Part shown: positions 23,405 through 59,539 of the stretch, one piece after another
Layout of the letters: every line of letters starts with the position of its first letter
Position numbering within the stretch: the stretch's first letter is position 1
The notes under the pieces: generated by a model
What the model saw: the letters and a program-made list of their open reading frames with translations, nothing else
What the model was told of the DNA's origin: nothing
Databases searched by the model: none
Position numbers and translations under genes: made by a program
Assembly (NCBI GenBank): GCA_030698495.1
Contig: JAUYKA010000008.1
Location: 78,895 to 142,894 of the forward strand
Direction of reading: 5' to 3'
Source: a bacterium
Lineage (GTDB): Bacteria > Patescibacteriota > Andersenbacteria > UBA10190
DNA length: 64,000 nucleotides

Positions 23405-23515
23405 GATCTCCCGCGGGTCCTGCCGCGCTCGAGCCCCCGCCCGACGGCTTCCCCCGCCCAAGGGCGGGGTGCAGGCGCTCGGCGGGGGACCCCCCAGCGC
23501 GTCACCCGCGGTGAA
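23405..23515. repeat. GC-rich palindromic intergenic element (family member 1)
   Basis: CCCCGCCC-aag-GGCGGGG hairpin, CCCGCGGG palindrome; shares the CCCCGCC...GGCGGGG / GCCCGCC...GGCGGGC hairpin type with copies at 26.7 kb and 59.3 kb. Confidence 0.5.
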
Positions 23516-23569
23516 AGCTTTATAGATATAAGTAAATATTGTGTCACAGTTCTTATAACCGGTTAATAA

Positions 23570-24790
23570 TTATTGGTTACTATTCATAAACTCAATTATC
23601 CCTGTCACTTCATCTTCCGAGAGAGAAGAGTAGGTGGGGAGGTTGATGGTTTTTTGCGCCAGTTTTTCGGCTTGGGGGCAGGCGCCTTGTGTGTAGAAGG
23701 GGGTTCGGTTGGAGCTACGGGGAGCTACGGGCGAGTTGTACCAGTCGCCGAGAAGAATTCTATTTTGTTTGGCTTGGCGCAGAATTTGGGTTGGGTTTTG
23801 AACCACAACGGGGAAGCGCAGCCAGCTTGGTTCGCCGGTAAATTTGATGACTGGTTTTTGTTTTAATTCTCTTAAGTAACGACTGGCAACCCTTTGTCTG
23901 GTCTCGGTATAGCGGTTTAGCTGGTTAAGTTGGTTTAACAGAAGCGGTGCCAGAGCGGGTGAGAATTGCCAGTTGGTTAGTCGTGGACGACCCCCAGTTT
24001 TTTCCTTGGGTGTAACGGCCTTGCTTAGAAGACGTAATTTTTGGGCGGTAACAAGTAAAATTTTGCCGACGCTGTACGTGAAATAGAAACGCTTTATGAA
24101 GGACATAATGATCGGGTGTTTTAGTTGCTGGATGTTCCACCAAAATGGCGGTAAGGGGAGTTTGTTTTGTTGGGTACGGATTTTTTGCATGACGGTTGAA
24201 TTGCGGACAGCAACAGCGCCGCCGAAAACACAGGACAGAGTTTTGTCGCGGCCGAAGCTGAAAATGGCGGCGTCGCCGAAAGTACCAAGTGGTTGGTTAT
24301 TGTGGCTGGCACCAAGGGAGTGAGCGCAGTCTTCAATAAGAAGAATATTATGAGCGGCGGTAATTTTTTTTAGTTCGTCTATGGGGCCGGGAATACCAAA
24401 GGTATGTTGGATAATAATGGCTTTAGTGTGTGGTGTTATTTTCCGTTCGACATCAGTTGGATCAAAATTGTAGGTGTCGGGATTAATGTCGGCAAAAACT
24501 GCCTTGGCACCGACCCAGGATACAGAGGCGGGAACGGTGACGCAGGTAAACGCTTGGATAATTATTTCGTCGCCGGCAGTAAACCCAAGGGCTTGGAACA
24601 GGGCGTACATAGCGCTGCGCCCGGAGCTGGTTAGAATTACCGCCTGATTATTCAGATATTGAGAAAGTCTATTTTCGGCTTGTTTGACTATGTTGTTATC
24701 CCGCCATTGCCACGGCGAAAACAAAGTACGCCAGGCAGTACTGATGTCGTCTGGTTCTGTGTTTGGTGAGAGAGAGGTGAGGACTGGCAT
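23570..24790 (-). CDS. DegT/DnrJ/EryC1/StrS-family PLP-dependent sugar aminotransferase
   Basis: Start at internal Met (MPVLTS...); LIEDCAHSLGA, FSFGRDKTLS (Lys-PLP region) typical of DegT family. Confidence 0.75.
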   Translation of the reverse strand: MPVLTSLSPNTEPDDISTAWRTLFSPWQWRDNNIVKQAENRLSQYLNNQAVILTSSGRSAMYALFQALGFTAGDEIIIQAFTCVTVPASVSWVGAKAVFADINPDTYNFDPTDVERKITPHTKAIIIQHTFGIPGPIDELKKITAAHNILLIEDCAHSLGASHNNQPLGTFGDAAIFSFGRDKTLSCVFGGAVAVRNSTVMQKIRTQQNKLPLPPFWWNIQQLKHPIIMSFIKRFYFTYSVGKILLVTAQKLRLLSKAVTPKEKTGGRPRLTNWQFSPALAPLLLNQLNQLNRYTETRQRVASRYLRELKQKPVIKFTGEPSWLRFPVVVQNPTQILRQAKQNRILLGDWYNSPVAPRSSNRTPFYTQGACPQAEKLAQKTINLPTYSSLSEDEVTGIIEFMNSNQ

Positions 24791-24966
24791 GTTAAATAAA
24801 ATTATTTGATGGAATGCAAAATGCAAACTGTAAACTGCAAAATGACAATGCAAAATTAAAAAATACTTGAGATGTTAATTTGATCGTAAAACATTATTAA
24901 TTTTAATCTGTTATTTTGCAGTTTGCAGTTTGCATTTTGAATTATTGGGGTTATGCAGGACTACGA

Positions 24967-26568
24967 TTAGTTAATAATCCCTCGCCTCACAATCTCTGGT
25001 ACTCGTCCTTCAATAAGTATCACTGTGTCGGGTTTAATGGTTTTTTTGACCGCTGTCAAAAGCTTTTTGGGAGAGGACATAAATGTAATTGTATTTTGTG
25101 ATTTAGCAGATTGGAATCCTTGTAATAAGTGTTTTTGATATGCTTTGCCGCTGATAAATATATCGGCACCGGATTGACCCAGCGCTTCGCCAAGATGCCG
25201 GTGAACAGCTGGAGCATCTACTCCTAATTCAATCAATGGCGTCATAATAACAATTTTGCTGGTTCCAGCGAATAATTTGAGATGATTGATAGCATTTATG
25301 ACTCCCACTTCGTTGGCAGAGTAGCTATCGTCTACGATTTGAACCGATTGCGATTTAGTAACAAGCTGCATGGTGCGCTCTACAGGGGTAAGTTGGGTCA
25401 GGGCGGAAAATATTTTGTCGGCGGGAACGCCAAGGACATAGGCAGTGGCGATTGCGGCCAGTACATTAGATAGTTGTCCTTGGCTTAAAAGAGAAATTGC
25501 TATCTGGGCACCAGCTGCATCTATATGAATCTGTGCTTGTAATGATGTCGGTAGGACTTTAATTTGATCGGCATAAATTTCGGCCGATCTTTCTTGGGAG
25601 TACCAAATAATCTTTTGGTTGGTTGTCTGGGCCTTGTTGGCGATGATTCTATCGTCGGCGTTGAGAATGGCGGTGCCGTTGGCGGGTAAATTATCAATTA
25701 ATTCCCATTTAGCAGCGGCTAGTTTTTCCTTGGTGCCGAATAATCCCAGGTGCTGGTTGCCGATGGCAGTAACTACGCCTATCTTCGGCTGGAGCAGGCG
25801 GCATAAGGCAGTGATTTCGCCGGCGCGGTAAGCGCCTGTTTCGGCGATATAGGTGCGGGAGTTGTCGTCGAGTCGATGAAGCATATCTTGCGCGACGGAT
25901 AGTTCGGAGTTGCGATGGTTGGCGGTGATAGTGTGATGGATGCCGGCTTGCGTTAAAATTTGATCGAGAAAATGTTTGGTGGATGTTTTACCGTAGCTGC
26001 CGGTTATGGCGATGACATTTAAACTTTTTAGACGGCGTCGCCGGGCGGTGGCTTGACTAATGATTTGACGTTTGCGCCAGTAAGTTAGGGCGTTGGTTAT
26101 CACGACAGATAACGGAGTCAAGAAAATGATGGCGATAATATACGTGCTCCACTGGAGAGCGGGAAGGATGTCAGAGATAAAGAAGAAAAAGTAATACGCC
26201 AAAGACAGGGCGGCCAGGGTTGTTATAAGGAGGAAACTTTTTATGGTGGGTTTGGGGCGATAAATGCCGCGATAGATGATGCGACCAGCGTGGTGGGCGA
26301 CAAGAAAAGCCATTTCGCTCCAGCCGAAGAGGTCGGCGGTGATGAGTTGGCCGGTTAAGGCAAGCAGCCAGCCAATATTGGAAAAAACGACTACACCGAG
26401 TAGTAAGCCGCGGTAGTTAAGCCACCATTCCTGGCTGCGGACGAGAGAAAATAGGCGATCCCAGCGGTATTCTTTGCGCTGCCATAGTTCGGCTTGGGAG
26501 GAGATGCTTAAAACGAGGAGGGGAAAGCCGATGACGGCGGCGATGATGTTTGGGGTGAGGAATGCCAT
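24967..26568 (-). CDS. murF: MurF-like Mur ligase with N-terminal 4-TM membrane domain in place of canonical domain 1
   Basis: 533 aa; residues 1-185 hydrophobic (4 predicted TM); P-loop ITGSYGKTSTKHF at about 190; C-terminal VDDSYSANEVG (MurF DDSYNANP-type) motif. Confidence 0.6.
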   Translation of the reverse strand: MAFLTPNIIAAVIGFPLLVLSISSQAELWQRKEYRWDRLFSLVRSQEWWLNYRGLLLGVVVFSNIGWLLALTGQLITADLFGWSEMAFLVAHHAGRIIYRGIYRPKPTIKSFLLITTLAALSLAYYFFFFISDILPALQWSTYIIAIIFLTPLSVVITNALTYWRKRQIISQATARRRRLKSLNVIAITGSYGKTSTKHFLDQILTQAGIHHTITANHRNSELSVAQDMLHRLDDNSRTYIAETGAYRAGEITALCRLLQPKIGVVTAIGNQHLGLFGTKEKLAAAKWELIDNLPANGTAILNADDRIIANKAQTTNQKIIWYSQERSAEIYADQIKVLPTSLQAQIHIDAAGAQIAISLLSQGQLSNVLAAIATAYVLGVPADKIFSALTQLTPVERTMQLVTKSQSVQIVDDSYSANEVGVINAINHLKLFAGTSKIVIMTPLIELGVDAPAVHRHLGEALGQSGADIFISGKAYQKHLLQGFQSAKSQNTITFMSSPKKLLTAVKKTIKPDTVILIEGRVPEIVRRGIIN

Positions 26569-26650
26569 AAAACTATATTATAACAGATTGGGCCGCAGTG
26601 TAGGGTAAATAATTTTGGTGCTGCTTAGGTTATTTGCTAACTTGTGTTTT

Positions 26651-26850
26651 CTCCGGCGAGTGTCACTTTTCGCGGCACCTACTCCCGGCGACACCAGCCG
26701 TCGCTCACGAGCTATGGCCGGCAAGGCATAGTGCCCGCTCCAGCGGCGGTCGCTACTCGACTAAAAGCCTGTCATCCCCGCCTTTTAGGCGGGGATGACA
26801 GGCTATTAGACGGTCGCCGGGAGCAGGTACCACGAGTGACACTCGCCGCG
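26651..26850. repeat. GC-rich nested palindromic element (family member 2, most complete copy)
   Basis: Nested inverted repeats: CCGGCGAGTGTCAC (26653-26666) / GTGACACTCGCCG (26836-26848); CTCCCGGCGAC / GTCGCCGGGAG; central 16-bp perfect hairpin GCCTGTCATCCCCGCC-tttta-GGCGGGGATGACAGGC. Confidence 0.6.
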
Positions 26851-26971
26851 GGAGCGCCAGTGATGTGGCAATATTTAAAAAAACCAAATACGCTTTTAGA
26901 CTTTCCTGATTTACACTGCTTGAAAGACAGAAGAAAACAATTGTTGCTGATTTTTCGAGATATTAGTTAGC

Positions 26972-27937: not shown

Positions 27938-28169
27938 TATGAATTTCAATTTTGTATGGTTAAGGTTGAATTTTCAATCTTCAATTTCCAATTTTCATAT
28001 AATAGCCAATGACCAATTACTAAATACACCCTAGAATTGAATGTGATTTACATGGTTGAAAATTGTTAAATTGTAATTTATATGGAAATTGGAAATTGTG
28101 CATTGGAAATTTGTCGCTATTGCGACATATAGTTATATATCCTAGTCTATAGCGTTAAGCGAGTAATTT

Positions 28170-28979: not shown

Positions 28980-29145
28980 ATAAGATTGGCATTGTGAAAA
29001 GTAAAATTTGGTTAGAGATGTGATGTTTTGCTCAAATTCCAAAATCCAAATAACAAATTTCAAATAAAAACCCAAATGTCCAATTACAAATTTATATAAA
29101 TTATAGAATATATAAGGTGGTTTTAAATGAGTTATAATATCGGAC

Positions 29146-30368: not shown

Positions 30369-30370
30369 AA

Positions 30371-31270: not shown

Positions 31271-31451
31271 CTTAATGACAAAGTTCAAATGTCAAATGAC
31301 AAATTAAATCCAAAAATTTAAACGTCAAAAGATTCGTTTTTTGATATTTGTAATTTGACATTTGGATTTTGAAATTATTTGTATTTAGCTTATGGATGGC
31401 TTGAATGGCATAGTAGGAGCTGGAGTATAATTATTCGGGTATTATATAATT

Positions 31452-32534: not shown

Positions 32535-32611
32535 ATGGTTTCGCAAGTTGAATCGATAAGTCAATCCGTTTTGACTTTTTGATATATTAAAACCTGGGAA
32601 AAGCTATATAA

Positions 32612-34024: not shown

Positions 34025-34229
34025 ATTGAGCTGTGGTTGTAAAGAATATTAACTCTTGATGATTTTTTTGTGTTTATATGAATAGAATAATTTTCAATTA
34101 TTAATTTCCAATTTTCAAACCTTTACGCCACCTGCTAAGAGTTACGCTGTTGTACGTAACATTTGGAAATTGGGTAATTGGGATTTAAATGGAAATTGGA
34201 AATTGATTAATTTGGTATAGAATGTCTTT

Positions 34230-35342: not shown

Positions 35343-35356
35343 GGTAATATTCAAAC

Positions 35357-36529: not shown

Positions 36530-36577
36530 ATCGCATAATTATTCAGTCATTTTTTTAAATTTACTGGGCTTGGTTCC

Positions 36578-38127: not shown

Positions 38128-39168
38128 ATGAATGAAACAATAAAGTTTAACGAAATAACCGCTTCTTTACTGGGAGTGCTGGACGCACGCTCTCAAGACA
38201 TATTAACGCGTCGTTATGGTTTGAACAGCGAGGAGAAAGAGACGCTGGAAAGCATTGGCCGCGAGTATGGCATTACCAGAGAAAGAGTGCGCCAACTGCA
38301 AACGCAGGCGAAAAAAGTGGTTATAGAGATGAAGGAAGCATATATGCCGGTTAGTGCTGTTTTTAATGAAGTATTCTCGCGCCACGGGGGTATTATGGTG
38401 GAATATTATGCCGTGAGTGTTCTTCGAGATTCAGCGCCTAGTGAAAAGCCCCGGTCAAATGTAGTATCGTTTTATTTGGACTTACTGCCTAATTTCGAGT
38501 ATGTCAGCCGTGATGCTGATTTTGTGCCTCATTGGCGGCATAATGCGTTGGTTAATGAGCGAGGAAGAGAAGCTGTGGCATGCGTTAAAGACATACTGCA
38601 AAAAGAGAAACATCCTATTGGCGAAGATGAATTGGTGCGAAAAGTCAGACAGGAAGGGTTATGGGAGGAAAGTGTCTTACCCCAAGATCATTTAATGGCG
38701 CAGTTATCGGCCAGCAAGCTTATTCGTAAAACTCCGTTTGGCGAGTGGGGTCTGGAAGATTGGCCGGAGACAAGTCCGCGCGGTGTCGGTGATAAGGCAT
38801 ACGCGGTATTGAGACGTCACGGAGAGCCGGAGCATTTTACCAGAATTTCAGAGATGATAAACGAAGCTAATTTTGATCACAAGCGCGCGAATGCCCAGAC
38901 GGTTCATAATGAATTGATTAAGGATGATCGCTTTGTCCTGGTCGGGCGCGGGTTATATGGTTTGAAAGAGTGGGGGTATGTTCCCGGTACCGTAGCCGAC
39001 GTGATCGAATCCTTACTTAAAGAAGCGGGAAAACCGTTGTCACGGGAAGAAGTTATTGACCGCGTACTGGCTCAACGACAGGTAAAAAAGAACACTATTG
39101 TGTTGGGTTTGCAAAACAGTGACAGATTTGTCCGAACCGACGACAGCCGATATACAGCGAAAGGATAG
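38128..39168 (+). CDS. DNA-binding protein: N-terminal sigma-70 region-4-like HTH + two HARE-HTH-like winged-helix domains
   Basis: LDARSQDILTRRYGLNSEEKETLESIGREYGITRERVRQLQ (sigma r4); two repeats of the pattern A..VL...G.P.HF..I...I.........TV...L..D.RFV..GRGLYGLKEW (residues about 215-270 and about 290-340). Confidence 0.5.
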   Translation: MNETIKFNEITASLLGVLDARSQDILTRRYGLNSEEKETLESIGREYGITRERVRQLQTQAKKVVIEMKEAYMPVSAVFNEVFSRHGGIMVEYYAVSVLRDSAPSEKPRSNVVSFYLDLLPNFEYVSRDADFVPHWRHNALVNERGREAVACVKDILQKEKHPIGEDELVRKVRQEGLWEESVLPQDHLMAQLSASKLIRKTPFGEWGLEDWPETSPRGVGDKAYAVLRRHGEPEHFTRISEMINEANFDHKRANAQTVHNELIKDDRFVLVGRGLYGLKEWGYVPGTVADVIESLLKEAGKPLSREEVIDRVLAQRQVKKNTIVLGLQNSDRFVRTDDSRYTAKG

Positions 39169-39224
39169 ACATTAGTAAATAGCAAGAGACGACCAACAGA
39201 CTGCAGACTAACGGCTGCAGTCTG

Positions 39225-40517
39225 TTGTATAATACCGACATGATATTCCTTTGGACCGCATTGGCACAATTGGGCGGTGTTATTGTCGCCTGGGGATGGC
39301 TGCTATTTTTGTTTTTGGCTTTATGGGTAGCCTGGGAGACTTATTTGTTTATCAAGCACGTTGATTATACTAATGCAATTAAGTGGACCTTTCTGGAAAT
39401 AACGGTGCCGGAGGATACACCGCAGACACCGAAGGCGATGGAGAATGCTTTTGATGTGTGGGGCGGTATTCATAAAGATCCGGATTTGATTGAAAAATAT
39501 TTTGAGGGATATTTTCTGGCTTGGTATTCCTGCGAGATTCAGTGCAAGCGAGATCAAGTACGTTATATTCTGGTGGTACCGACAGTGCACGCCAAATTTT
39601 TTGAAGGAGTAGTTTACGGACAATACTCGGCGGCACATGTTACGGAAGTAGAAGATTACACGCAGGAATATTCTTTTCGCGATTTGGAAAAAAAATATGA
39701 TTTATATGGCACGGAGATTGTGCTGGTTAAAGACGATTACTATCCGATTCGAACTTACCGCGAATACGAAGACACTTTTGCGGAAGATGATAAGTACGTT
39801 GATCCGCATCAGGCCCTAATTGAGGCGTACACGAATATTGGTGAAGGAGAGCAGTTTTGGGTACAAGTGCTGGTTAAGCCGGTGGCGGGGGATGACATAC
39901 AGAAGTGGGCGGATAAGGGGCAGGATAAAATTGCGGAAATTTCCGGGCAAAAGAAAGAAGTGCCGGAAGGAATTTGGGCGCAATTAAGTGGTTTACTGAC
40001 TAAGCTGCCGGGAGAGATCCTGGGGGCGTTCGTTAACGGTCCGACAACCCCGGAGGATAAGAAGAAAGAAGCGCTGGAACTGCGTTTTCATAATCCGGCG
40101 CAAGACGCGGAAATGAAGGGGATACTGCTAAAGGTATCGCATTCGGCATATAAGACTAAGCTCCGGTTGATTTACATTGCGCCAGTGGGAAAGCTGGATA
40201 AACCCAGTATTTCTAAAGCAATCGGCGTGTTTAAACAGTTTAATACTTTTCATCTTAATTCTTTAAAGCCGGATCCGGCGACGAAAACTAACGGGCCGAA
40301 TTATGTGCTGAAACAATCGCGCCGACACTTCCGTAAAAAATCGGTGCTGCTGAACTATCAATGGCGAGATTTTTGGGGAGATGAGAGCGGACAAATGTTG
40401 GTGGCGGAAGAGTTGGCGACGTTGTATCATTTGCCGGTTAAGTACCTAAAGTCGCCGGTCGTACGTCATTCTCCTTCCGGCTTAGGCAGCCCGCCGGATA
40501 ATTTACCTTACGTCTAA
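39225..40517 (+). CDS. membrane protein (2 N-terminal TM helices + large soluble domain), partner of downstream TraD/VirD4-like ATPase
   Basis: 430 aa; MIFLWTALAQLGGVIVAWGWLLFLFLALWVAW TM hairpin; 10-nt gap to ATPase gene. Confidence 0.4.
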   Translation: MYNTDMIFLWTALAQLGGVIVAWGWLLFLFLALWVAWETYLFIKHVDYTNAIKWTFLEITVPEDTPQTPKAMENAFDVWGGIHKDPDLIEKYFEGYFLAWYSCEIQCKRDQVRYILVVPTVHAKFFEGVVYGQYSAAHVTEVEDYTQEYSFRDLEKKYDLYGTEIVLVKDDYYPIRTYREYEDTFAEDDKYVDPHQALIEAYTNIGEGEQFWVQVLVKPVAGDDIQKWADKGQDKIAEISGQKKEVPEGIWAQLSGLLTKLPGEILGAFVNGPTTPEDKKKEALELRFHNPAQDAEMKGILLKVSHSAYKTKLRLIYIAPVGKLDKPSISKAIGVFKQFNTFHLNSLKPDPATKTNGPNYVLKQSRRHFRKKSVLLNYQWRDFWGDESGQMLVAEELATLYHLPVKYLKSPVVRHSPSGLGSPPDNLPYV

Positions 40518-40527
40518 CGGTTCTTTT

Positions 40528-42267
40528 ATGCCCGAAGACAGTGAAAATGAAATAAACATTTTAGGCCAGACTAATTTTCGCGGTCAGCACCGGCAGTTTG
40601 GCATTTATCCCGATGATAGGCGCCGACATGTTTACGTGGTTGGGAAAACGGGAGTGGGCAAGTCCACCCTGTTGGAAAACATGATTGCGCAGGACATTAT
40701 TCATAACAAGGGGGTTTGTCTGGTTGATCCGCACGGGGATACGGTGGAACGTCTGCTTAACGCGGTGCCGCCGAGCCGGATTAACGACGTGGTGTATTTT
40801 GATCCGTCCGATGTGGATTGGCCGGTGGCATTTAATGTACTGGAGGCAGTAGATCCGGCTTATAAATATCTGGTGGCGTCGGGGCTAGTCAGCTCGTTGA
40901 AGAAAATGTGGGCGGATTCCTGGGGGCCGCGGCTGGAGTATATTTTGCGCAATACGATTTTAGCGTTACTGGATTATCCTTCCAGCACAATTTTGGGTAT
41001 TCTGCGCATGCTTTCCGATAAGACTTACCGCAAAAAAGTGGTTGATAAAATTTCCGATCCGGTAGTGAAGAGTTTTTGGACAAATGAATTCGCCAATTAT
41101 AACGAGCGCTTCCGCACGGAAGCTATTTCGCCTATTCAGAACAAAGTGGGTCAGTTGTTAAGCTCGGCGATTATCAGAAATATCGTGGCGCAACCCAAGA
41201 GCACTATTGATATGAAGGATATCATGGACAATGGCAAGATTTTACTGGTCAATATGTCAAAAGGAAAAATCGGTGAGGATAATTCCGGTTTGCTGGGAGC
41301 AATGATTATTAATCGGATTCAGCTGGCGGCCATGGACAGAGCCAGCATCCCCGAAGAAGAAAGGCGAGACTTTTACCTGTACGTGGATGAGTTCCAAAAC
41401 TTTGCCACGGAGTCTTTCGCGGATATTTTATCGGAAGCCAGAAAATACCGGCTGAATTTGACGGTGGCGCATCAATATATCGCGCAGATGGAAGAAGAAG
41501 TGACTGATGCCGTTTTCGGCAACGTCGGGACGATTGTCGCCTTTCGTGTAGGCGCGGCCGATGCTGAGTATTTAGAACAAGAATTCGCGCCAGTGTTTAC
41601 CCAAACCGATTTGGTTAACCTGGATAAATATAACGCTTATTTAAAATTAATGATAAACGGCATTAGCAGTAAGCCTTTTAGTATGCAGGCACTGCCGCCG
41701 GTGATGGAAAACTTCGGCAAAGGAGAAGTGGTAAGAATGGTGTCGCGCGAGCGTTTTGGCCATAAAAGGGAGATCGTGGAGGATAAGATCAGGCGCTGGA
41801 GCGGTATAGTACTGGGTGAGGCCGGAGAAGAACAAAGTGCACCGCAATATTCACCGCGATCATACAGCGGCGGCGAAAGAAGACCGGGACGCGGCCGACA
41901 AACGTCGACAGAAAGGCATGAGGCTAGGCAAGCGCCAGCGCAAATTAACAAGGAACAGTTGGCAGATGTGGTGCTGCCTATTTCGGCTAAACCAATTACG
42001 GATTTGGCGGCGGTGTTATCGCAGGGGCCGAACACAAGCAGTTCGACGCGAAGAGGCAGCGCGCGCGGTTTTGAAGTGATATGTCGCCGATGCGGCAAGA
42101 AGACCGAGGTGCCTTTTGATCCTGATCCGGCCAAGCCGGTTTATTGTAAGGAATGTTTCCAAATCGTAAGGCAAGAAAAAGCGGGGGAACGAGAGCGGAA
42201 AGTAAATACGGTTGACGCCAGGGTATCTAAACGATTTAGCGGTCCGCAACCGCCGGCATTGCCATGA
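40528..42267 (+). CDS. TraD/TraG/VirD4-like (type IV coupling-protein-like) P-loop ATPase with disordered basic linker and C-terminal CxxC...CxxC zinc ribbon
   Basis: VVGKTGVGKSTLLENMIAQDI ... LVDPHGD (Walker A + TrwB-like block); FYLYVDEFQNFAT (Walker B); RKYRLNLTVAHQYIAQM (TraG-D_C-like); C-term CRRCGKKTEVPFDPDPAKPVYCKEC. Confidence 0.55.
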   Translation: MPEDSENEINILGQTNFRGQHRQFGIYPDDRRRHVYVVGKTGVGKSTLLENMIAQDIIHNKGVCLVDPHGDTVERLLNAVPPSRINDVVYFDPSDVDWPVAFNVLEAVDPAYKYLVASGLVSSLKKMWADSWGPRLEYILRNTILALLDYPSSTILGILRMLSDKTYRKKVVDKISDPVVKSFWTNEFANYNERFRTEAISPIQNKVGQLLSSAIIRNIVAQPKSTIDMKDIMDNGKILLVNMSKGKIGEDNSGLLGAMIINRIQLAAMDRASIPEEERRDFYLYVDEFQNFATESFADILSEARKYRLNLTVAHQYIAQMEEEVTDAVFGNVGTIVAFRVGAADAEYLEQEFAPVFTQTDLVNLDKYNAYLKLMINGISSKPFSMQALPPVMENFGKGEVVRMVSRERFGHKREIVEDKIRRWSGIVLGEAGEEQSAPQYSPRSYSGGERRPGRGRQTSTERHEARQAPAQINKEQLADVVLPISAKPITDLAAVLSQGPNTSSSTRRGSARGFEVICRRCGKKTEVPFDPDPAKPVYCKECFQIVRQEKAGERERKVNTVDARVSKRFSGPQPPALP

Positions 42268-42338: not shown

Positions 42339-43025
42339 ATGAGGACAAGTAATCCTAACGAAAAATTGGTAGTTGATAAGCCGTTTGATTTTGCGGAGGA
42401 CGCTAATTGGCGAATTTTTCGTATAATGGCGGAGTTCATCGAGGGGTTTGAGTTCTTGGCGCCGTTACGCAAGGAAGTGACTTTTTTTGGATCAGCAAGG
42501 CTCAAAGAAGATTCGTATTGGTACAAACAAGCGCAACGGCTTGGTTATTTATTGGGTAAGAATGGTTTTACGGTAGTTACCGGTGGGGGGCCGGGGATAA
42601 TGGAAGCGGGTAACCGGGGCGCTTACGAAGCGGACGGACAGTCTATTGGGCTAGATATTGAACTGCCGACAGAACAAAGGCGCAATCCTTACATACGCAA
42701 AGGAATAGGTTTCCATTATTTCTTTACCAGAAAAGTAATGCTGTCGGCTTCAGCGCAAGCTTATGTGTTTTTTCCGGGAGGATTCGGTACGTTGGATGAG
42801 TTTTTCGAAATGGTGACGCTGCAGCAGACAAAGAAGATGGAGAACGTGCCAATTGTTTGCGTGGGACATGATTTTTGGGAGGGGTTAGATGACTGGGTGA
42901 AGAAAAATTTGGTTGAGAAATATAAAACGATTAATAGTGATGACAGCTCAATATATACGGTGGTAGATTCGGCAGAAGAAGCATTTGCTATTATCAAAGA
43001 CACAAAGGAGCGGAAGTATTTCTGA
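42339..43025 (+). CDS. LOG-family (TIGR00730) Rossmann-fold nucleotide-binding protein / cytokinin riboside 5'-monophosphate phosphoribohydrolase-like
   Basis: VTGGGPGIMEAGNRGA and PGGFGTLDE motifs. Confidence 0.8.
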   Translation: MRTSNPNEKLVVDKPFDFAEDANWRIFRIMAEFIEGFEFLAPLRKEVTFFGSARLKEDSYWYKQAQRLGYLLGKNGFTVVTGGGPGIMEAGNRGAYEADGQSIGLDIELPTEQRRNPYIRKGIGFHYFFTRKVMLSASAQAYVFFPGGFGTLDEFFEMVTLQQTKKMENVPIVCVGHDFWEGLDDWVKKNLVEKYKTINSDDSSIYTVVDSAEEAFAIIKDTKERKYF

Positions 43026-43121
43026 TCAGCGAGATAAGATATATAAGCCAGATAAGTCAATAAGCTGATAAGTTCTTATCTTGCTGATTTAGCTTATCTT
43101 GCTTATCTTACTGATATACAT

Positions 43122-44993
43122 ATGAGTGCAAGAATATCTAGCAACGACCTACGAACAAAATATCTGGATTTTTTTGCTAGTAAAGGGCATAAGGTAATTG
43201 CCTCGGCGCCGCTAGTGCCGGAAAATGATCCGACGACTTTGTTCACCGGTTCGGGTATGCAGCCGATGGTGCCGTATTTATTGGGACAAAGACACCCTTT
43301 GGGTAATCGGATAGTTGACGTGCAAAAATGTTTTCGGGCGGTTGATATCGATGAAATTGGCGATAATCGCCATACTTCTTTTTTCGAAATGTTAGGCAAT
43401 TGGTCTCTGGGTGATTATTTCAAAAAAGAACAAATTCCTTGGGTGCTGGAATTTTTAACGGAGGTATTGGGTTTAAATGCCAATCAGTTATACGTCACAG
43501 TTTTTCGCGGACGAGAAGATTTGAATATTCCCCGGGATGAGGTCAGTGCCGATATTTGGCGCGATGTTTTTCAGAAGAAGAGAATAGACGCTAAGGTGGT
43601 AGATTGGCCGGAAAAAGACGGGTTGCAAGGAGGGCGTATATTTTATTATGACGAAACAAAGAATTGGTGGAGCCGGTCGGGCGCACCAGCTGATATGCCG
43701 GTTAATGAGCTGGGCGGACCGGATAGCGAAATTTTTTGGGATTTTGGCGAAAATTTAGGTTTGCACGAAAAGTCGCCGTGGAAAGATAAGCCGTGTCATG
43801 TTAATTGTGATTGCGGTCGGTTTTTGGAGATTGGCAACAGTGTGTTTATGGAGTTTATTAAAACGGATAAAGGGTTCGCCGGCTTACCGCAAAAGAATAT
43901 AGATTTTGGCGGCGGTCTGGAAAGAGTGGCGGCGGCGTTAAATGATAATCCTGATATTTTTAAAATTGATTTGTTTGCCGATATCATTGCCTATGTTCAG
44001 GAGAAGAGTGGAGAAATATACGGACAAGATATTGAGTTGACAAATGCTTTTCGGGTAATTGCCGATCATGCGCGCGCAGTGACATTTTTAATTGCCGACG
44101 GGGCGGTGCCGGCTAATAAAGATCAGGGTTATTTTACACGCCGCTTGATCAGGCGAGCGGTTAGGTTTGGTTATACCCTTGGTTTGGAGGATCGTTTTCT
44201 GGCTGATATTGCCCGGATTATTAGCCGACAATACGAGAACGTATATCCGGCCATAGAGAAAAATATTGATGTTATTGCCGCCGAGATTACAAACGAAGAA
44301 AATAAATTTCGCAAAACATTAAAGTCAGGGCTGGAAAAGATCGAACAGTATTTGCAAAATACGGATAATATTAACGGGAAGCAGGCGTTTGAAATGTATG
44401 CCACTTTCGGGTTTCCGATAGAGATGTTGGTGGAAGAAGCGGTGGAGCGAGGATGCCAGGTTGATATTGACGGGTTTAAAAAAGAACTGAACAAACACAG
44501 GGATTTATCACGGACGGCCAGCGCGGGTAAATTCAAGGGCGGCTTGGCTGATCATGGCGAGATGACAGTAAAATATCATACGGCAACACATTTATTGCAC
44601 CAATCTTTGCGAACGGTACTCGGAGATCAGGTTGAGCAAAGAGGAAGCAATATCACGGCCGAGCGTTTGCGTTTTGATTTTTCTTATCCTAATAAGTTGA
44701 ACAACGATCAGTTGGCCGGGGTAGAGACTTTGGTAAACGAGAAAATTCAAGACGATTTGCCCGTTCAAAAAGAGGAGGTGACGGTAGCGGAAGCAAAAGA
44801 AGCGGGGGCGATCGGGTTGTTCGCGGCTAAATACGGAGAGAAGGTGAGTGTTTATTCAATCGGAGATTTTTCCCGGGAAATTTGTGGGGGACCGCACGTA
44901 GAGCGCACGGGGATGTTGGGACGTTTTAAGGTTATAAAGGAAGAGTCTGCCGGGGCGGGGGTACGACGGATAAAGGCAGTGCTAAAAAACTAA
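43122..44993 (+). CDS. alaS: alanine--tRNA ligase, short form (catalytic + editing domains, no C-Ala domain)
   Basis: N-terminus DLRTKYLDFFASKGHKVIASAPLVPENDPTTLFTGSGMQ; editing HTATHLLHQSLR and CGGPHVERTGMLG motifs; ends right after editing domain at 623 aa. Confidence 0.85.
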   Translation: MSARISSNDLRTKYLDFFASKGHKVIASAPLVPENDPTTLFTGSGMQPMVPYLLGQRHPLGNRIVDVQKCFRAVDIDEIGDNRHTSFFEMLGNWSLGDYFKKEQIPWVLEFLTEVLGLNANQLYVTVFRGREDLNIPRDEVSADIWRDVFQKKRIDAKVVDWPEKDGLQGGRIFYYDETKNWWSRSGAPADMPVNELGGPDSEIFWDFGENLGLHEKSPWKDKPCHVNCDCGRFLEIGNSVFMEFIKTDKGFAGLPQKNIDFGGGLERVAAALNDNPDIFKIDLFADIIAYVQEKSGEIYGQDIELTNAFRVIADHARAVTFLIADGAVPANKDQGYFTRRLIRRAVRFGYTLGLEDRFLADIARIISRQYENVYPAIEKNIDVIAAEITNEENKFRKTLKSGLEKIEQYLQNTDNINGKQAFEMYATFGFPIEMLVEEAVERGCQVDIDGFKKELNKHRDLSRTASAGKFKGGLADHGEMTVKYHTATHLLHQSLRTVLGDQVEQRGSNITAERLRFDFSYPNKLNNDQLAGVETLVNEKIQDDLPVQKEEVTVAEAKEAGAIGLFAAKYGEKVSVYSIGDFSREICGGPHVERTGMLGRFKVIKEESAGAGVRRIKAVLKN

Positions 44994-45129
44994 AAACGTA
45001 AAGCGTAAAACTCAAAACAACAACGAAAAAGTAAAAATATTCAGTGGCCGATATATGGAGTTTTTAGTGGTTATTTTAGTTTGAAGTTTTTCGTTTTAAG
45101 TTTAAGTGATTTGTCTATATACTTAGGTT

Positions 45130-46479: not shown

Positions 46480-46490
46480 GGCGAAATTAA

Positions 46491-46551
46491 CTCCCGTGCC
46501 CAGCCGTCGCTAAAGCTATGGCCGGCACGGCGCGCACTAAGGCTGTTGGCC
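46491..46551. repeat. GC-rich palindromic element (family member 3, short copy)
   Basis: CTCCCGTGCCCAGCCGTCGCTAAAGCTATGGCCGGCACGG aligns to 26682-26726 (CTCCCGGCGACACCAGCCGTCGCTCACGAGCTATGGCCGGCAAGG). Confidence 0.55.
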
Positions 46552-46738
46552 TAAAAATTTGGGCAATTCGCATTCTTAAAAGAGGAGGTGAAACGAGGGA
46601 GGGATTGACAGGAAACGGGGGGTATATTATACATAAATAAGCGTGCATGGCTAGATCTCGGGAATGCAGATGCTCGGTTTTTTTAGGTATATCCCGTTCT
46701 ATCGCGCAGGCGCGCGGTTTATTTTTTATCTAGTATTT

Positions 46739-46957
46739 TTGTCAAAACAAGATTACGTGGAGATAGAGGGGGAAGTGTTGGAGAATCTTCCTAATACCCA
46801 GTTTAGGGTTAAGTTGGATTCGGGACAGGAAATAATTGCCCATTTAAGCGGGAAAATGCGGGTGCATCGGATTAGAGTTTTGCCCGGAGATAGGGTAAAA
46901 GTGGCGATGTCTCCTTATGATTTAAGCAAAGGCCGCATTGTTCTAAGAATGGAATAA
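46739..46957 (+). CDS. infA: translation initiation factor IF-1
   Basis: [69 protein letters not shown] is near-identical in pattern to bacterial IF-1; proposed TTG start at 46739 (the track ORF from 46664 adds 25 non-homologous residues). Confidence 0.8.
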
Positions 46958-46972
46958 TCTAATAAAACAGTA

Positions 46973-47086: not shown

Positions 47087-47133
47087 AAGATCAATTTTCA
47101 ATTATCAATTTCCAATTTCCAAACATTAAGAAT

Positions 47134-47526: not shown

Positions 47527-47529
47527 TCT

Positions 47530-47925: not shown

Positions 47926-47974
47926 CGCAGCCGGATAAGTTCAATAAGGAAGATAAGTTCATAAGTTTTAAGAT

Positions 47975-48529: not shown

Positions 48530-48569
48530 TCCCGCCTAAATATAAAATTTATTTATTAATAACCTTGCC

Positions 48570-49881: not shown

Positions 49882-49889
49882 GAATTTTT

Positions 49890-50321: not shown

Positions 50322-50327
50322 AAGACT

Positions 50328-50735: not shown

Positions 50736-50860
50736 GTGTCAGAAAATTTCTAATTTCTAATAACTAATTACTAATAAAATTTTAAATGTTTAACGCCAAA
50801 TTTTAAGCATTGGGCATTTTATTAGACATTAGTAATTAGGATTTAGTAATTACAGCCAAT

Positions 50861-52195: not shown

Positions 52196-52245
52196 AGGGG
52201 GACTATGCCTTATTGTAGCATTTTTGTAAATGAGAGGGATGCGAT

Positions 52246-52357
52246 CGAGGATGGCTGCCTATTTGGTTTTGACGCCAAATTTCTCATGCTTATTTTTACG
52301 TTAAGGTATTCCGCCGGCACGGCAATGGCGTCAAAACCAAATAGGCAGCCATCCTCG
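52246..52357. repeat. 31-bp perfect inverted repeat flanking a 50-nt spacer (GC-rich palindromic element family member 4)
   Basis: CGAGGATGGCTGCCTATTTGGTTTTGACGCC (52246-52276) is the exact reverse complement of 52327-52357; spacer contains GCCGGCACGGC also present in copy 3. Confidence 0.7.
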
Positions 52358-52443
52358 GACTATGTTAATTTTACCCTTTGCATTTACGAAAATCTGGGGT
52401 GAAGAGAACGGGGGTGACTTGATTTTGGGGGTTGGTTGACGGT

Positions 52444-53706: not shown

Positions 53707-53710
53707 CTAT

Positions 53711-54721: not shown

Positions 54722-54923
54722 ACAAATATATACGTTTTTTGAGATTTAAAGGTAAAACGTAAAACGAAAAAGGCAAAACAACATCATAAAAACTAAAAAC
54801 ATAACGACAAAAATTCGTTGTTATTTTTTGCTTTTTCTTGTTGTTGTAAGTTTTACGTTTTAAGTTTTACGTTTTTGATTATTCTACTTGCTACGTGCTG
54901 CTAGTGTCAGTTATCATGCCTAG

Positions 54924-56063: not shown

Positions 56064-56071
56064 TATAAATA

Positions 56072-56407
56072 GTGAAATATTCTCTGCAAGCGGAAAATTT
56101 AACAGTGACAGAAGCGGACAGGCTGTTATTAGAGAAAAAGATTGGCCGTCTTAAGAAACTGCTGCAGCCACCTTATATGGCGGATATTAGGTTTTGGCAT
56201 GACACTCACCATATCAAGGGTGAGGTTGTTAACTGTGTGATGAACGTTAAAGAAGGGAAGAGAGTATTTCATAGCGAGCGCGTCGGCGACAGTATGCAGA
56301 AGGCATTGGACGAATGTTTGCAGGCGATTAAGAGCGAGATTGCAAAAAATCACGGGAAGGGCAAGAGGCGTCGGTTTTGGTGGAGTAAGTTGGCGAAAGA
56401 AACGTAA
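56072..56407 (+). CDS. hpf: ribosome hibernation promoting factor / RaiA (S30AE family)
   Basis: 111 aa; MKYSLQAENLTVTEADRLLLEKKIGRLKKLL ... HSERVGDSMQKALDECLQAIKSEIAK matches HPF beta-alpha-beta-beta-beta-alpha pattern. Confidence 0.65.
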   Translation: MKYSLQAENLTVTEADRLLLEKKIGRLKKLLQPPYMADIRFWHDTHHIKGEVVNCVMNVKEGKRVFHSERVGDSMQKALDECLQAIKSEIAKNHGKGKRRRFWWSKLAKET

Positions 56408-56570
56408 AACTGAAAGCGAAAAACTTAAAATAACAACTTAAAACTCAAAACAGTTGTCAAGCTGGCGGTGGGAATTTTTTGTTTTATACTGTTGTTTTTC
56501 GTTTTGCGCTTTACGCTTTAAGTTTTCTGTGCTTTTGACAAGCGCCTATTTAGAAGTAAGGTGTAGTATA

Positions 56571-59207
56571 ATGGCTTGGTTAAATTTTATTAATCAACGA
56601 AGCCGCCATGAAAAGGCGGTGGATAAATATAAGCCGGTAGTAGAGAGGATAAACGCTTTGGAGCCGGAATTACAATCTCTGTCGGACAGTGAGTTGAAAG
56701 CGCGCGCGCAAAAATATAAGGGTAAGGATGTTGAAGCAATAAAAAAGGATAAGGATCAGGTTTTTGCTATTGTGCGCGAGGCGGCCAAGCGAAGTTTAAA
56801 AATGCGGCATTTCGACGTGCAGTTGATGGGCGGATTGGCGTTACTCGATCAGGCGATAGCGGAGATGAAAACGGGAGAAGGAAAAACTTTGGTGGCAACC
56901 CTGCCCTTGAGCCTGCACGCCTTAACGGGCAAGGGGGCACATCTGGTGACGGTAAATGATTATTTGAGCAAGCGCGATGCCGAGTGGATGCGGCCGGTTT
57001 ACGAGTTTCTGGGATTAACCGTGGGAGTAATCAGTCCGGGACAGCTGCCGGCGGAAAAACGAGAGGCTTACGCGGCGGATATTACTTACGGTACCAACAA
57101 TGAGTTCGGGTTTGATTATTTACGCGATAATATGGCGGTGCAGGCGGAAAATATGGTGCAAAGGCCGCTCTGGTACGGAATTGTGGATGAGGTGGACAGT
57201 ATTTTGATTGATGAGGCGAGAACACCGCTGATTATTTCGGCGCCGGACATGGAGTCGACGAGAATGTACCAGCAATTCGCTTCTTTAGTCCCGCAGCTAA
57301 AGGAAAATGAAGACTATAATATTGACGAGAAGAGACGGGCGGCGACCTTAACAGATGAGGGCGTGACAAAAGTTGAAGGGTTGTTGGGAGTTGATAATAT
57401 TTACGCGGAGAACGGCATCAGGCAGGTACATCATCTGGAGCAGGCCTTGCGGGCACAGACTTTGTATCACCGCGACAAAGATTATGTGGTGCGCGAGGGG
57501 CAAGTAATAATTGTGGACGAGTTTACCGGACGATTGATGGAGGGCCGGCGCTATTCGGAAGGACTTCATCAGGCCATAGAAGCCAAGGAAAAAGTGAAGG
57601 TGAAGCAGGAGAGCCGGACACTGGCGACAATCACTTTCCAGAATTTTTTCCGTCTTTATCCGTATTTGGCGGGCATGACCGGGACGGCAGTAACATCGGC
57701 CGAGGAGTTTGAAAAAGTTTACAACTTGGATGTGCTGGTGGCGCCGACAAATAAACCGCTGGTGAGAAAAGATTTACCCGACAGAATTTATGTTAACGAA
57801 CAAGCGAAGTTCATGGCTGTTATGAACGAGATAAAACAGCGCAATCAGAAGGGACAGCCAGTGCTGGTGGGCACTATTGCTATTGAAAAGTCGGAATATT
57901 TATCAGCGCTGCTACAGCGGGAGGGAATCAGGCACGAGGTTTTAAATGCCAAACATCATCAGCGCGAAGCAGAAATTATCGCCCAGGCAGGGCAAAAAGG
58001 CGCGGTGACAATTTCTACAAATATGGCCGGACGCGGGACGGATATTAAATTGGGCGAGGGTGTGGTTGATTTAGGCGGGTTATTGGTCATAGGCACGGAG
58101 CGGCATGAAGCACGCCGTATTGACAATCAGTTGCGCGGGCGATCGGGACGGCAAGGCGATCCGGGCGAGACACGGTTTTTTGTCAGTCTGGAAGACGATG
58201 TGATGAGAGTTTTCGGCGGGGACAGGTTAAAGAAAATTATGCAGACGCTGAAGCTGCCGCCGGAAGAAGCAATTGAGAGCCGGATGGTCAATCGGGCACT
58301 GGAAGGAGCGCAGGAGCGGGTGGAAGGTTATTACTTTGATATGCGCAAACAGGTTTTGTCTTACGACGATGTGCTTAACCGCCAGCGCAACGCCATTTAT
58401 ACTTTGCGGCGAGGAGTGATGCTGGAGGGAAAATGGAAAGAAGCAAATAAAGAGGCGGAAGGATTGGCGGAGCATATCGAGTCTTTGCTGGACGAGCAGG
58501 CGCGCCAGCTGGTTTTGATTCACACGGGCGAGGGCGGGCCAGACAGCTGGGATATAGAGGAGATTGCCGAGGCAATGCATTCGCTGACAGGGATTGATAT
58601 CGCGGCGGCGCGGTTGGATTACGAAAAGATTCTAGCGGAACAAAAAATGGGTCCGGAGGAGGCGCGCGAGGCGTTGGTTGATAGGGCGGCGGAACAGCTG
58701 CGGCAAAGGCTTTCGGCGCGAAAGGAAGAATTGGGTAGCGCCACGCTGGAGCAATTGGAGCGGGCAGCAACGATTCGTTCGATTGATATTCACTGGATGG
58801 ATCATTTGGATACAATGGATTACTTGCGTACAGGGATAGGCTTGCGCGGGTACGGCCAGCGCGATCCGCTGGTGGAATACCAGAAGGAAAGCTTTCAGTT
58901 GTTTCGGAATTTGCTGGCGACAATTAAATCCTCAATAGTGGAAGTGGTGTTTAAGGCAGAAGCGGTGAAGCAGGAGGCGGAGCATGGCGTGGCGCGGCAT
59001 GACGAGACTTCGGTTTTGTCAGCGGCGCAATCATCGCCTACGCCAAGCGCCGGCGGTCAGCTGGCAGCAGCCGCGCAGGCAGCCGGTTCGCAGACACTAA
59101 AGAATCCATATAAGGGAGTGGGGAGAAACGACCCATGTCCGTGCGGAGCGACTAAACCGGATGGCACCCCCAAGAAGTTTAAACAATGCCACGGTAGGAA
59201 TACATAG
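56571..59207 (+). CDS. secA: preprotein translocase ATPase SecA (with C-terminal zinc-binding tail)
   Basis: Start at internal ATG 56571 (MAWLNFIN... aligns with SecA N-terminus); MRHFDVQLMGG, AEMKTGEGKTL (Walker A); C-terminal CPCGATKPDGTPKKFKQCHG. Confidence 0.9.
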   Translation: MAWLNFINQRSRHEKAVDKYKPVVERINALEPELQSLSDSELKARAQKYKGKDVEAIKKDKDQVFAIVREAAKRSLKMRHFDVQLMGGLALLDQAIAEMKTGEGKTLVATLPLSLHALTGKGAHLVTVNDYLSKRDAEWMRPVYEFLGLTVGVISPGQLPAEKREAYAADITYGTNNEFGFDYLRDNMAVQAENMVQRPLWYGIVDEVDSILIDEARTPLIISAPDMESTRMYQQFASLVPQLKENEDYNIDEKRRAATLTDEGVTKVEGLLGVDNIYAENGIRQVHHLEQALRAQTLYHRDKDYVVREGQVIIVDEFTGRLMEGRRYSEGLHQAIEAKEKVKVKQESRTLATITFQNFFRLYPYLAGMTGTAVTSAEEFEKVYNLDVLVAPTNKPLVRKDLPDRIYVNEQAKFMAVMNEIKQRNQKGQPVLVGTIAIEKSEYLSALLQREGIRHEVLNAKHHQREAEIIAQAGQKGAVTISTNMAGRGTDIKLGEGVVDLGGLLVIGTERHEARRIDNQLRGRSGRQGDPGETRFFVSLEDDVMRVFGGDRLKKIMQTLKLPPEEAIESRMVNRALEGAQERVEGYYFDMRKQVLSYDDVLNRQRNAIYTLRRGVMLEGKWKEANKEAEGLAEHIESLLDEQARQLVLIHTGEGGPDSWDIEEIAEAMHSLTGIDIAAARLDYEKILAEQKMGPEEAREALVDRAAEQLRQRLSARKEELGSATLEQLERAATIRSIDIHWMDHLDTMDYLRTGIGLRGYGQRDPLVEYQKESFQLFRNLLATIKSSIVEVVFKAEAVKQEAEHGVARHDETSVLSAAQSSPTPSAGGQLAAAAQAAGSQTLKNPYKGVGRNDPCPCGATKPDGTPKKFKQCHGRNT

Positions 59208-59264
59208 GGCTTAACTTATACATAGCTTACTGAATTAATCTCCGCCGGGTGAACCCTACTTAGC

Positions 59265-59408
59265 CTTACCACTCCTTCCTTCTGGCGGCACACTTGCCCG
59301 CCCCAGCGGCGGGCTGCGCTCGACTTATGGCCTTGCCACTTTGCCCATAAGGCAAAGACCAGGCTGGCAAGGCCATGAGACGGCCGCCAGAAGGAAGGAG
59401 TGGTAAGG
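59265..59408. repeat. 26-bp perfect inverted repeat enclosing 93 nt with nested palindromes (GC-rich palindromic element family member 5)
   Basis: CCTTACCACTCCTTCCTTCTGGCGGC (59265-59289... checked base by base) is the reverse complement of GCCGCCAGAAGGAAGGAGTGGTAAGG (59383-59408); interior GCCCGCCCCAGCGGCGGGCTGCGCTCGAC is homologous (24/29) to 26746-26774. Confidence 0.7.
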
Positions 59409-59539
59409 CTAGGCGCCTGCGGGCGCCACCCGCCGCGATTGTTGGCATAATATGGGTATAATTTATGTAATTAATTAGCGCGGAGCGACCAGGTGATATA
59501 ATGTAAACGTCATGATTTCTTAAATTTTTGCCTATTTTT

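Follow-up and report, generated by a model that had tools for sequence, protein, structure and literature searches.

Related GC-rich hairpin elements dispersed among the intergenic spacers of an Andersenbacteria genome

Palindromic sites in the intergenic spacers

We examined the intergenic spacers of a 64-kb stretch of bacterial DNA from the Andersenbacteria (Patescibacteriota; contig JAUYKA010000008.1 of assembly GCA_030698495.1, positions 78,895 to 142,894; hereafter the window), in which an earlier reading of the bare sequence, the original prediction, had noted at least five related copies of a GC-rich, nested-palindromic element. Coordinates are those of the window, to which all copy counts apply, and the five sites are called c1 to c5. 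The window is 47% GC, with a positive GC skew (0.07–0.42) in all 1-kb bins on whichever strand the genes lie. It carries glycosyltransferase (GT) and cell-wall (dcw) genes and a conserved block, infA-rpmJ-rpsM-rpsK-rpsD-rpoA-rplQ-rplM-rpsI-PEGA-murA-mreB-GT4-HPF-secA-secD/F, and the sites neighbour ordinary housekeeping genes (femAB, degT, a Mur ligase gene, a GT2 gene, infA, PEGA, murA and secA). No transfer RNA or transfer-messenger RNA gene was found in the 64-kb window. The nearest non-identical matches of the window SecA are only ~70% identical, so the collections searched hold no close relative.

The first site, c1 (23407–23513, + strand), is one long hairpin of 107 nucleotides (nt) and 81% GC between degT (−) and femAB (−). 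The fullest copy, c2 (26650–26864, +), occupies the divergent spacer between the Mur ligase gene (−) and the GT2 gene (+). A stand-alone hairpin of the type called PX below, CCGTGCC-CCAGCCGTCGCTAAAGCTATGGCCGG-CACGG, makes up c3 (46490–46535, +), 11 nt past the stop codon of a 434-amino-acid (aa) gene and upstream of infA. At c4 (52246–52357, no strand assigned), between the divergently oriented PEGA (−) and murA (+) genes, a perfect 32-bp inverted repeat encloses 48 nt of AT-rich sequence, and c5 (59239–59437, +), a full-length homologue of c2 without PX, begins 32 nt past the secA stop codon. Placement relative to genes varies: c2 and c4 lie in divergent spacers, and c1, c3 and c5 at gene 3′ ends.

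Four of the sites stand out from the other spacers (GC fraction 0.23–0.42) as originally described, c1 at 0.81 and c2, c3 and c5 at 0.65, whereas c4 reaches just 0.48 overall. Folding z-scores against shuffled sequences are about −10 to −14 for c2, c4 and c5, −3.6/−4.5 for c1 and about −2 for c3. The nested inverted repeats attributed to the copies are readily seen, and strong ones occur at every one of the five sites: the arms match at 100% over 29 nt in c5 and over 32 nt in c4, and c2 has one pair of 26-nt arms matching at 92% and another of 23 nt at 87%. So are their side effects on gene calling: c1, c2 and c5 cause femAB to be called with a false N-terminal extension and give rise to spurious open reading frames (ORFs) of 108 and 168 aa.

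Homology among the copies

Pairwise local alignments were scored against 300 dinucleotide-preserving shuffles of the elements themselves, a null that controls for GC-rich composition, in 20 tests. The alignment of c2 with c3 scored 49 against a null of 15.6 ± 2.2, and that of c2 with c5 scored 36 against 17.9 ± 2.6; neither score was reached by any of the 300 shuffles. The blocks that the original prediction had drawn between copies 2 and 3 and between copies 2 and 5 are therefore real, and GC-rich low complexity does not account for them. Three further pairs (c1 with c5, c1 with c2 and c3 with c4) were marginal, at 22–25 against ~14–18 (P ~ 0.01–0.02, uncorrected for the 20 tests). Significant similarity occurred exclusively in the + orientation, regardless of the strand of the neighbouring genes.

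The two long copies, c2 and c5, are collinear over their full ~200 nt, with a mean column identity of 72% in a MAFFT alignment. Homology between c3 and c2 covers 26681–26728 of the latter, from ACTCCCG through the entire PX hairpin, at 86% column identity. The terminal motifs occur at c1, c2 and c5 only, always on the + strand. With c2 and c5, c1 has in common the terminal stem P1 (TCTCCCGCGGGT ... CACCCGCGGTG), whose 5′ end matches c5 at 10 of 12 positions, and both c1 and c5 contain the block CTGC(C)GCGCTCGA. The apical hairpin of c1 (23451–23469) is of the CCCCGCC type; the hairpin CCCCGCC-loop-GGCGGGG, originally assigned to copies 1, 2 and 5, is literally present in c1 and c2, while the c5 equivalent reads CTTTGCC/GGCAAAG. 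A covariance model built from c2 and c5 (R1) matched c1 weakly (11.5 bits, E = 0.1), and c1 is probably a short member of the family.

The sequence said to link copies 3 and 4, GCCGGCACGGC, is a bare 11-mer with a BLAST E value of ~1, which is the level of chance; c4 was consequently treated as unrelated. It resembles none of c1–c3 and c5 significantly, and is a further lineage-specific palindrome outside the family. Neither R1 nor a second covariance model built from PX (R2) found a further copy in the window or in ~110–120 kb of DNA from other organisms. The structured GC-rich elements do form a dispersed intergenic family of partial homologues, made up of c2, c5, c3 and probably c1; in the window it numbers three to four related copies and not five.

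A shared fold with compensatory changes

RNAalifold gave c2 and c5 a single common structure of 53 pairs, all formed in both copies, with 14 pairs altered on both sides. When the same columns were scored as a control, true partners gave 100% paired cells and the 14 double changes, whereas partners slid by one to three columns gave 32–52% paired cells and zero to two double changes, bearing out the compensatory changes that the original prediction had suggested looking for. From outside to inside, the fold comprises the terminal closing stem P1, the long, sequence-variable stem P2, PX (in c2 alone), the small hairpin PA, a junction and the long hairpin PB. P1 is conserved (5′ TCTCCSSCGRGT ... 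CACYCGCSGYG 3′); in c2, CTCC-GGCGAGTGTCAC pairs with GTGACACTCGCC-GCG-GGAG, and in c1 and c5 the two sides are complementary at 8–10 of 11 positions. The CCAGC loop of PA is invariant in c2 and c5, and the junction, CU-CG-A-CU ... AG-A-CG-G, is conserved, with its A.A mismatch retained in both. PB differs in sequence between the two copies and retains its pairing. Loop, junction and tail are the best conserved parts, and the stems co-vary.

In c2, P1 spans 26651–26666/26836–26854 and P2 spans 26670–26692/26813–26835 (23 pairs, with three A.C positions), followed inwards by PX (26694–26721), PA with its CCAGC loop (26729–26755) and P3 plus PB (26758–26812). The conserved 3′ tail CGCCAGTGAT (26855–26864) is unpaired (GGAGCGCCAGTGAT). 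In c5, P1 (59240–59251/59427–59437) encloses a perfect 29-bp P2 (59261–59289/59383–59411), PA (59296–59314), P3 plus PB (59321–59382) and an extra hairpin, PC (59412–59427). A possible displaced 3′ tail of c5, GCGCGGAGCGACCAGGTGAT (59478–59497, +), is tentatively recognised across a 40-nt AT-rich gap by its resemblance to the c2 tail CGCGGGAGCGCCAGTGAT (P ~ 0.04).

An RNA read from one strand should show more G.U than A.C positions on that strand. On the + strand, the listed helices contain 186 Watson–Crick positions, 5 G.T and 5 A.C; the strands do not differ in this respect, and few positions are wobble pairs. The folding energy on the − strand is equal to or better than that on the + strand.

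Absence from syntenic loci of relatives

Two Andersenbacteria-like relatives with 69–70% SecA identity, L002 and L004, keep the window gene order from infA to secD, and we compared their spacers with those of the window as bounded by called genes. The HPF–secA spacer measures 10 nt in L002, 4 nt in L004 and 163 nt in the window; the corresponding lengths are 32, 4 and 202 nt for mreB–GT4 and 87, 67 and 260 nt for PEGA/murA. The genes for S9 and PEGA overlap in L002, have a CsrA gene between them in L004 and are 125 nt apart in the window. A conserved hairpin that lies 7 nt beyond the secA stop codon in L002 lies 350 nt beyond it in the window. Overall, spacers of 4–90 nt in the relatives correspond to 125–350 nt in the window. 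Spacers are two to thirty times longer here than in the relatives, and c4, c5 and the AT-rich palindromes described below make up the additional sequence. BLAST and both covariance models found no sequence resembling c1–c5 in L002 or L004. Because the syntenic spacers of the relatives are short and hold nothing of the kind, the elements are insertions specific to this Andersenbacteria lineage.

Variation among assemblies at c2 and c5

We compared the window with independent assemblies of the organism, namely contigs from two sequencing runs (SRR13727534 and SRR26726065) and two NCBI assemblies. Some 40 kb of these are 100% identical to the window save for three changes, all within c2 or c5. 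In c2, a deletion of 49 nt bounded by GCC direct repeats (26770–26818; Logan contig, SRR26726065) eliminates PB together with the first part of the 3′ arm of P2. A 107-nt deletion in c5 (59286–59392; NCBI contig, GCA_034372665.1) has GG microhomology and removes the entire core. The third change is a single-nucleotide polymorphism (SNP) in c2, A→T at 26805 (Logan contig, SRR13727534), that converts an A.A mismatch of PB to an A–T pair. The SRR26726065 Logan contig ends exactly at 59285, as expected if two c5 alleles coexist. The compared assemblies leave c3, c4 and the AT-rich palindromes unchanged (c4 is identical in the independent assembly L027), and c3, c4 and the full-length form of c2 recur without a single difference in assemblies made independently from two or three samples.

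DNA hairpins that form in replication classically give rise to deletions at the hairpin between short direct repeats and to the 'correction' of quasi-palindromes towards perfection. The SNP at 26805, if real, is a direct example of intra-strand templated repair, and the elements appear hypermutable and dispensable. Several Logan contigs (L001, L023, L025, L026, L028 and L029) end at or in palindromes: at 52275 in an arm of c4 (two samples), at 59285 in c5 (one sample) and within c1 at 23442–23480 (two contigs). A fourth assembly, GCA_034376345.1 (L010; window 1–7776), differs by 5 SNPs over 7.8 kb, which means that at least two strains of the organism have been sampled.

Searches for known families, signals and partner enzymes

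Across the entire window, no Rfam 15 model reached its gathering threshold. At E ≤ 10 (22.3–60 kb, and c2 alone), the elements drew just plant microRNA precursor models, which match any long hairpin, and a weak rnk_pseudo leader match of 14–16 bits within the PB hairpin of c2; outside the elements, the range scanned yielded TMV_UPD-PK1 and SpF43_sRNA alone. All of these scored far below threshold. No description of repetitive extragenic palindromic (REP) sequences, miniature inverted-repeat transposable elements (MITEs) or palindromic repeats was found in the literature searched on the candidate phyla radiation (CPR), Patescibacteria or Andersenbacteria. Together these results agree with the original remark that no such family was known to have been described for this kind of genome.

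Sequence scans detected no promoter- or terminator-like sites at or flanking the elements. As intrinsic terminators, c1, c3 and c5 are suitably placed at gene 3′ ends but lack a U-tract, and c2 and c4, in divergent spacers and hence 5′ of both genes, cannot be terminators. No direct repeats that might represent a target-site duplication were found at the boundaries of c1, c2, c3 and c5. Comparison of flanks produced marginal, non-adjacent matches only: TAACTTGT, which precedes both c1 and c2 (P = 0.04), and the c2-like tail downstream of c5 noted above (P = 0.04).

For partner enzymes, 45 window ORFs, every element-adjacent gene included, were scanned directly against Pfam; ~15 other genes (mostly ribosomal-protein genes, and GT genes at 3.5–5.4 kb) carried precomputed Pfam labels only, and several small ORFs lay outside the scan. 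Among the 45 ORFs there was no reverse transcriptase, TnpB/IscB, IS110, Y1/HUH (including Y1_Tnp), DDE transposase or integrase domain. A retron, an IS605 omega-RNA and an IS110 bridge RNA were each rejected as candidates, the required partner genes not having been found in the scanned window ORFs.

Searches beyond the window were similarly unproductive. An exact-pattern scan of GTDB representatives (a set that excludes this genome) with GCCCGCNCCAGCGGCGGNNNNNNCTCGAC gave four chance matches, in Mycolicibacterium and an alphaproteobacterium; viral contigs scanned by pattern, plasmids searched by blastn with c2 and phages searched likewise with c5 yielded none. A metagenome scan for relatives of the Mur ligase adjacent to c2 recovered distant ones only (≤46% identity, mostly on short contigs; the only match above that level was a 40-residue fragment at 58%), and no similar element was present among the loci scanned. 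A chimeric six-frame translation of c1, c2 and c5, run to detect further copies mis-called as ORFs, had no match at E ≤ 1, and phmmer with the c2 ORF against 1.84 billion representatives found one match, an unrelated protein of internal repeats.

Interpretation of the family

We favour, with a probability of roughly 0.45, the interpretation that c1, c2, c3 and c5 are a mosaic family of non-coding, GC-rich, nested-palindromic repeat DNA resembling bacterial interspersed mosaic elements (BIMEs) built of REP sequences, or MITEs. It draws on their non-coding, extragenic and lineage-specific character, on the occurrence of PX both alone and nested in c2, on conserved ends around variable interiors, on the presence of several palindromic families side by side, and on the hypermutability and apparent dispensability noted above. 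Under this interpretation, elements that entered the intergenic spacers of this Andersenbacteria lineage would form hairpins in single-stranded DNA at replication, and their arms would be kept complementary through intra-strand templated repair, or quasi-palindrome correction. Such repair would produce perfect stems and 'compensatory' changes without any selection on RNA, and these hairpins would also give rise to slippage deletions. Spread may have depended on a trans-acting enzyme recognising the conserved hairpin and junction, as do HUH/Y1 transposases of the REP-associated tyrosine transposase (RAYT) or IS200/IS605 type. Recognition of a folded single strand is suggested by the lack of target-site duplications, by the conserved hairpin, junction and mismatch, and by the single orientation of the copies within a stretch that, to judge by its GC skew, belongs to one replichore. 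Lying just 3′ of genes, c1, c3 and c5 may incidentally stabilise or end transcripts.

REP/BIME elements, or REPINs, consist of imperfect palindromes of 20–40 nt with a conserved 5′ GT(A/G)G, number tens to hundreds per genome and owe their mobility to RAYT, a Y1/HUH transposase that is itself related to IS200/IS605 and whose gene is usually REP-flanked. The present elements resemble them in being GC-rich imperfect palindromes that lie outside genes, frequently immediately 3′ of one, with mosaic hairpin modules (PX alone as c3 and nested in c2), no target-site duplication and a biology dependent on hairpins. They differ in having no GT(A/G)G head (their ends read TCTCC... and ...GCG/GTG), in their sizes of 46–215 nt, the full copies being 200-nt multi-helix structures rather than hairpins or doublets of 20–40 nt and only PX/c3 being REP-sized, and in occurring as three to four divergent copies in a window whose scanned ORFs include no RAYT gene. 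MITEs such as the Correia/NEMIS elements of Neisseria and the palindromic elements of Rickettsia (RPE) share with them a length of 100–250 bp, a non-coding, dispersed and lineage-specific nature, folding into long hairpins and terminal inverted repeats (here P1) around a more variable interior. Yet there is no target-site duplication, the 72% identity of c2 and c5 is far from near-identity, the interior hairpins co-vary rather than decay, and no partner insertion sequence with matching ends lies in the window. Formally defined, the family qualifies neither as REP (no GTAG head and no RAYT gene seen) nor as MITE (no duplication and copies not near-identical), even though the REP/BIME- or MITE-like reading originally proposed is the best supported.

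Other comparisons are looser. Yeast mitochondrial GC clusters and fungal mitochondrial double-hairpin elements are likewise short GC-rich palindromic modules in the AT-rich spacers of a compact genome, form families with shared blocks and act as rearrangement hotspots, but they belong to another domain of life, are unrelated in sequence and are smaller, without the conserved closing stem seen here. In integron attC and other single-stranded-DNA recombination sites, as here, structure, including unpaired and mismatched bases, is better conserved than stem sequence, and recognition would be of a folded single strand; here, though, inspection found no RYYYAAC/GTTRRRY core sites at the element ends, no integrase was found among the scanned ORFs and there is no cassette array. 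The structured RNAs of Rfam 15 offer a conserved multi-helix fold with compensatory changes but no family match.

Several observations weigh against mobile repeat DNA. The copies are only three or four and are divergent, whereas recently mobile elements are usually near-identical; neither a duplicated target site at c1, c2, c3 or c5 nor a transposase, integrase or Y1/HUH domain in the 45 scanned ORFs was there to be found; and the deletion alleles of c2 and c5 might be artefacts of library preparation or assembly where hairpins are very stable. Moreover, conserved loops, junction and tail, with co-varying stems and an A.A mismatch in both full copies, are also the classic signature of a functional RNA. 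It is conceivable, though on balance doubtful, that c2 and c5 represent a new structure-specific element marked by the conserved closing stem, the invariant CCAGC loop and the junction with its A.A mismatch, either a structured RNA of ~210 nt new to Patescibacteria or the folded single-stranded-DNA substrate of an unrecognised hairpin-recognising transposase or recombinase.

The RNA explanation in its own right would make c2 and c5 paralogous genes or cis-acting parts of messenger RNAs for a new structured RNA of ~210 nt, with P1 and P2 as its closing stem, a multi-helix junction, the invariant CCAGC loop and the CUCGACU/AGACGG junction, with c3 and c1 as reduced relatives and with stems co-varying under selection on the RNA fold. 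The 53 shared pairs, 14 of them compensatory and none broken, fit this account, as do the superior conservation of unpaired loop, junction and tail sequences, the like orientation of all copies and their standing as GC-rich islands amid AT-rich spacers. Yet even at E ≤ 10 Rfam offers nothing beyond generic hairpin models, no promoter- or terminator-like signal lies beside the elements, and they are not present at the syntenic loci of relatives. G.U and A.C positions, at five each, favour neither strand, with G.U rare; perfect stems of 26–29 bp exceed what an RNA fold needs; and in another sample of the organism both c2 and c5 carry deletions that destroy the core. The small structured RNA that the original prediction offered as an alternative is the main rival, though a rather unlikely one, and neither strand asymmetry nor promoters, terminators or persistence in relatives speak for it. 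The elements might instead be what is left, after decay, of foreign GC-rich DNA from a common donor, for instance an integrative element, a plasmid or a phage of which they were the ends or attachment sites; their palindromes would then be the original recombination sites, and the copies would not be a self-propagating family. Such a history would explain an element GC far above that of host spacers and would suit both the position of c5 in a variable region, where extra genes separate secA and secD unlike in L002, and the presence of a 65% GC ORF without Pfam match at 19351–19688. We consider this origin quite improbable: phage, plasmid and viral collections gave no match, no integrase or mobile-element genes adjoin any copy, and four separate small insertions precisely bounded by hairpins fit poorly with the decay of a larger island. 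That there is no family at all, the hairpins having arisen independently at each site as terminators or by local palindrome growth, with chance GC-rich matches for blocks, or else as assembly artefacts, is correct for c4 and its one shared word, and is helped by the weak match of c1 and by the contig breaks at c1, c4 and c5. For c2, c3 and c5 it is refuted by the shuffle tests and by the collinear similarity of c2 and c5 over the whole element; the exact recurrence of c3, c4 and full-length c2 across samples speaks against artefact, and the lack of a U-tract after any element against independent terminators. Overall it is very hard to credit.

Streamlining, few mobile elements and very short spacers are considered typical of CPR/Patescibacteria genomes; several palindromic repeat families, some GC-rich and others AT-rich, fill the spacers of this lineage. 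Mobility of the GC-rich family would imply that a mobilising enzyme of CPR bacteria has gone unrecognised, and an RNA would represent a new fold; were c2 and c5 single-stranded-DNA substrates, they would belong to the first REP/RAYT-like system described in the CPR. In practical terms, the elements break short-read assemblies and create spurious ORFs and false N-terminal extensions. As the sole polymorphic sites in the ~40 kb compared, c2 and c5 offer natural markers by which to follow mutation driven by hairpins, through quasi-palindrome correction as well as slippage deletion, in an organism that has not been cultivated.

AT-rich palindromes and other features of the window

Most of the larger spacers hold long AT-rich palindromes (24813–24943, 27943–28111, 31273–31377, 34084–34206, 43024–43115, 44985–45118, 47088–47127, 50751–50852, 54745–54882 and 56398–56535), in which an A-rich arm is followed by a T-rich arm, with arms of 30–60 nt made up of short motifs of 6–7 nt; most lie at a gene 3′ end. 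They include at least two families of three copies each, one at 44985, 54745 and 56398 (75% column identity) and one at 27943, 34084 and 47088 (up to 88% over 40 nt). Those at 50751, 54745 and 56398, in the infA-to-secA block, occupy spots where the L002 and L004 spacers are far shorter. The palindromes of this block look like lineage-specific repeats, perhaps with a terminator role, and the lineage has gathered several families of intergenic palindromic repeats.

Two ORFs without Pfam match lie at 18505–19688, in a region of raised GC (0.51–0.53 per kb); the second (19351–19688, ~65% GC) is followed by a canonical terminator at 19737–19765 and may be a foreign gene. Within the housekeeping region, a cluster at 38128–42267 comprises a gene whose product carries both sigma-70 region 4 and HARE-HTH domains, an ORF of 430 aa without Pfam match and a gene for a zinc-finger-bearing coupling ATPase of the TraG/TrwB type. 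Downstream of c3, infA is called at 95–97 aa with an N-terminal extension, against 72–73 aa in relatives. The extension region (46600–46740) contains a promoter-like TTGACA-17-TATACA at ~46605–46634 and a GC-rich terminator-like hairpin with a T-run at 46701–46728, which suggests a putative leader or attenuator preceding a shorter infA.

The interval between secA and secD is a variable spot in otherwise conserved synteny. In the window (59867–61234) it contains a 137-aa ORF and an 87-aa ORF, both without Pfam match, a NUDIX hydrolase gene and a DUF1653 gene; secD directly follows secA in L002, and L004 has a NUDIX-AdoHcyase gene there on the opposite strand. Adjoining c5 is a candidate non-coding RNA of ~200 nt (59545–59750, −), with a counterpart in L002 (12598–12790), a promoter-like TTGACT-18-AATATT (59780–59751) and a terminator hairpin, CAGTTACC...GGTAACTG, with a T-run (59558–59590). 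The candidate has no Rfam match; a minimal RNase P RNA was considered for its GGGAAAGUCCC motif and rejected, that motif being a variable hairpin of different sequence in L002. Over 49 nt, the hairpin region of the candidate shows 96% identity to that of the relative whose SecA is only 69% identical, and the window and L002 sequences share a partly co-varying fold of 35 pairs, 5 of them compensatory, whose C-rich hairpin loop (CCUUCC/CCUCCC) could pair with a GGAGG upstream.

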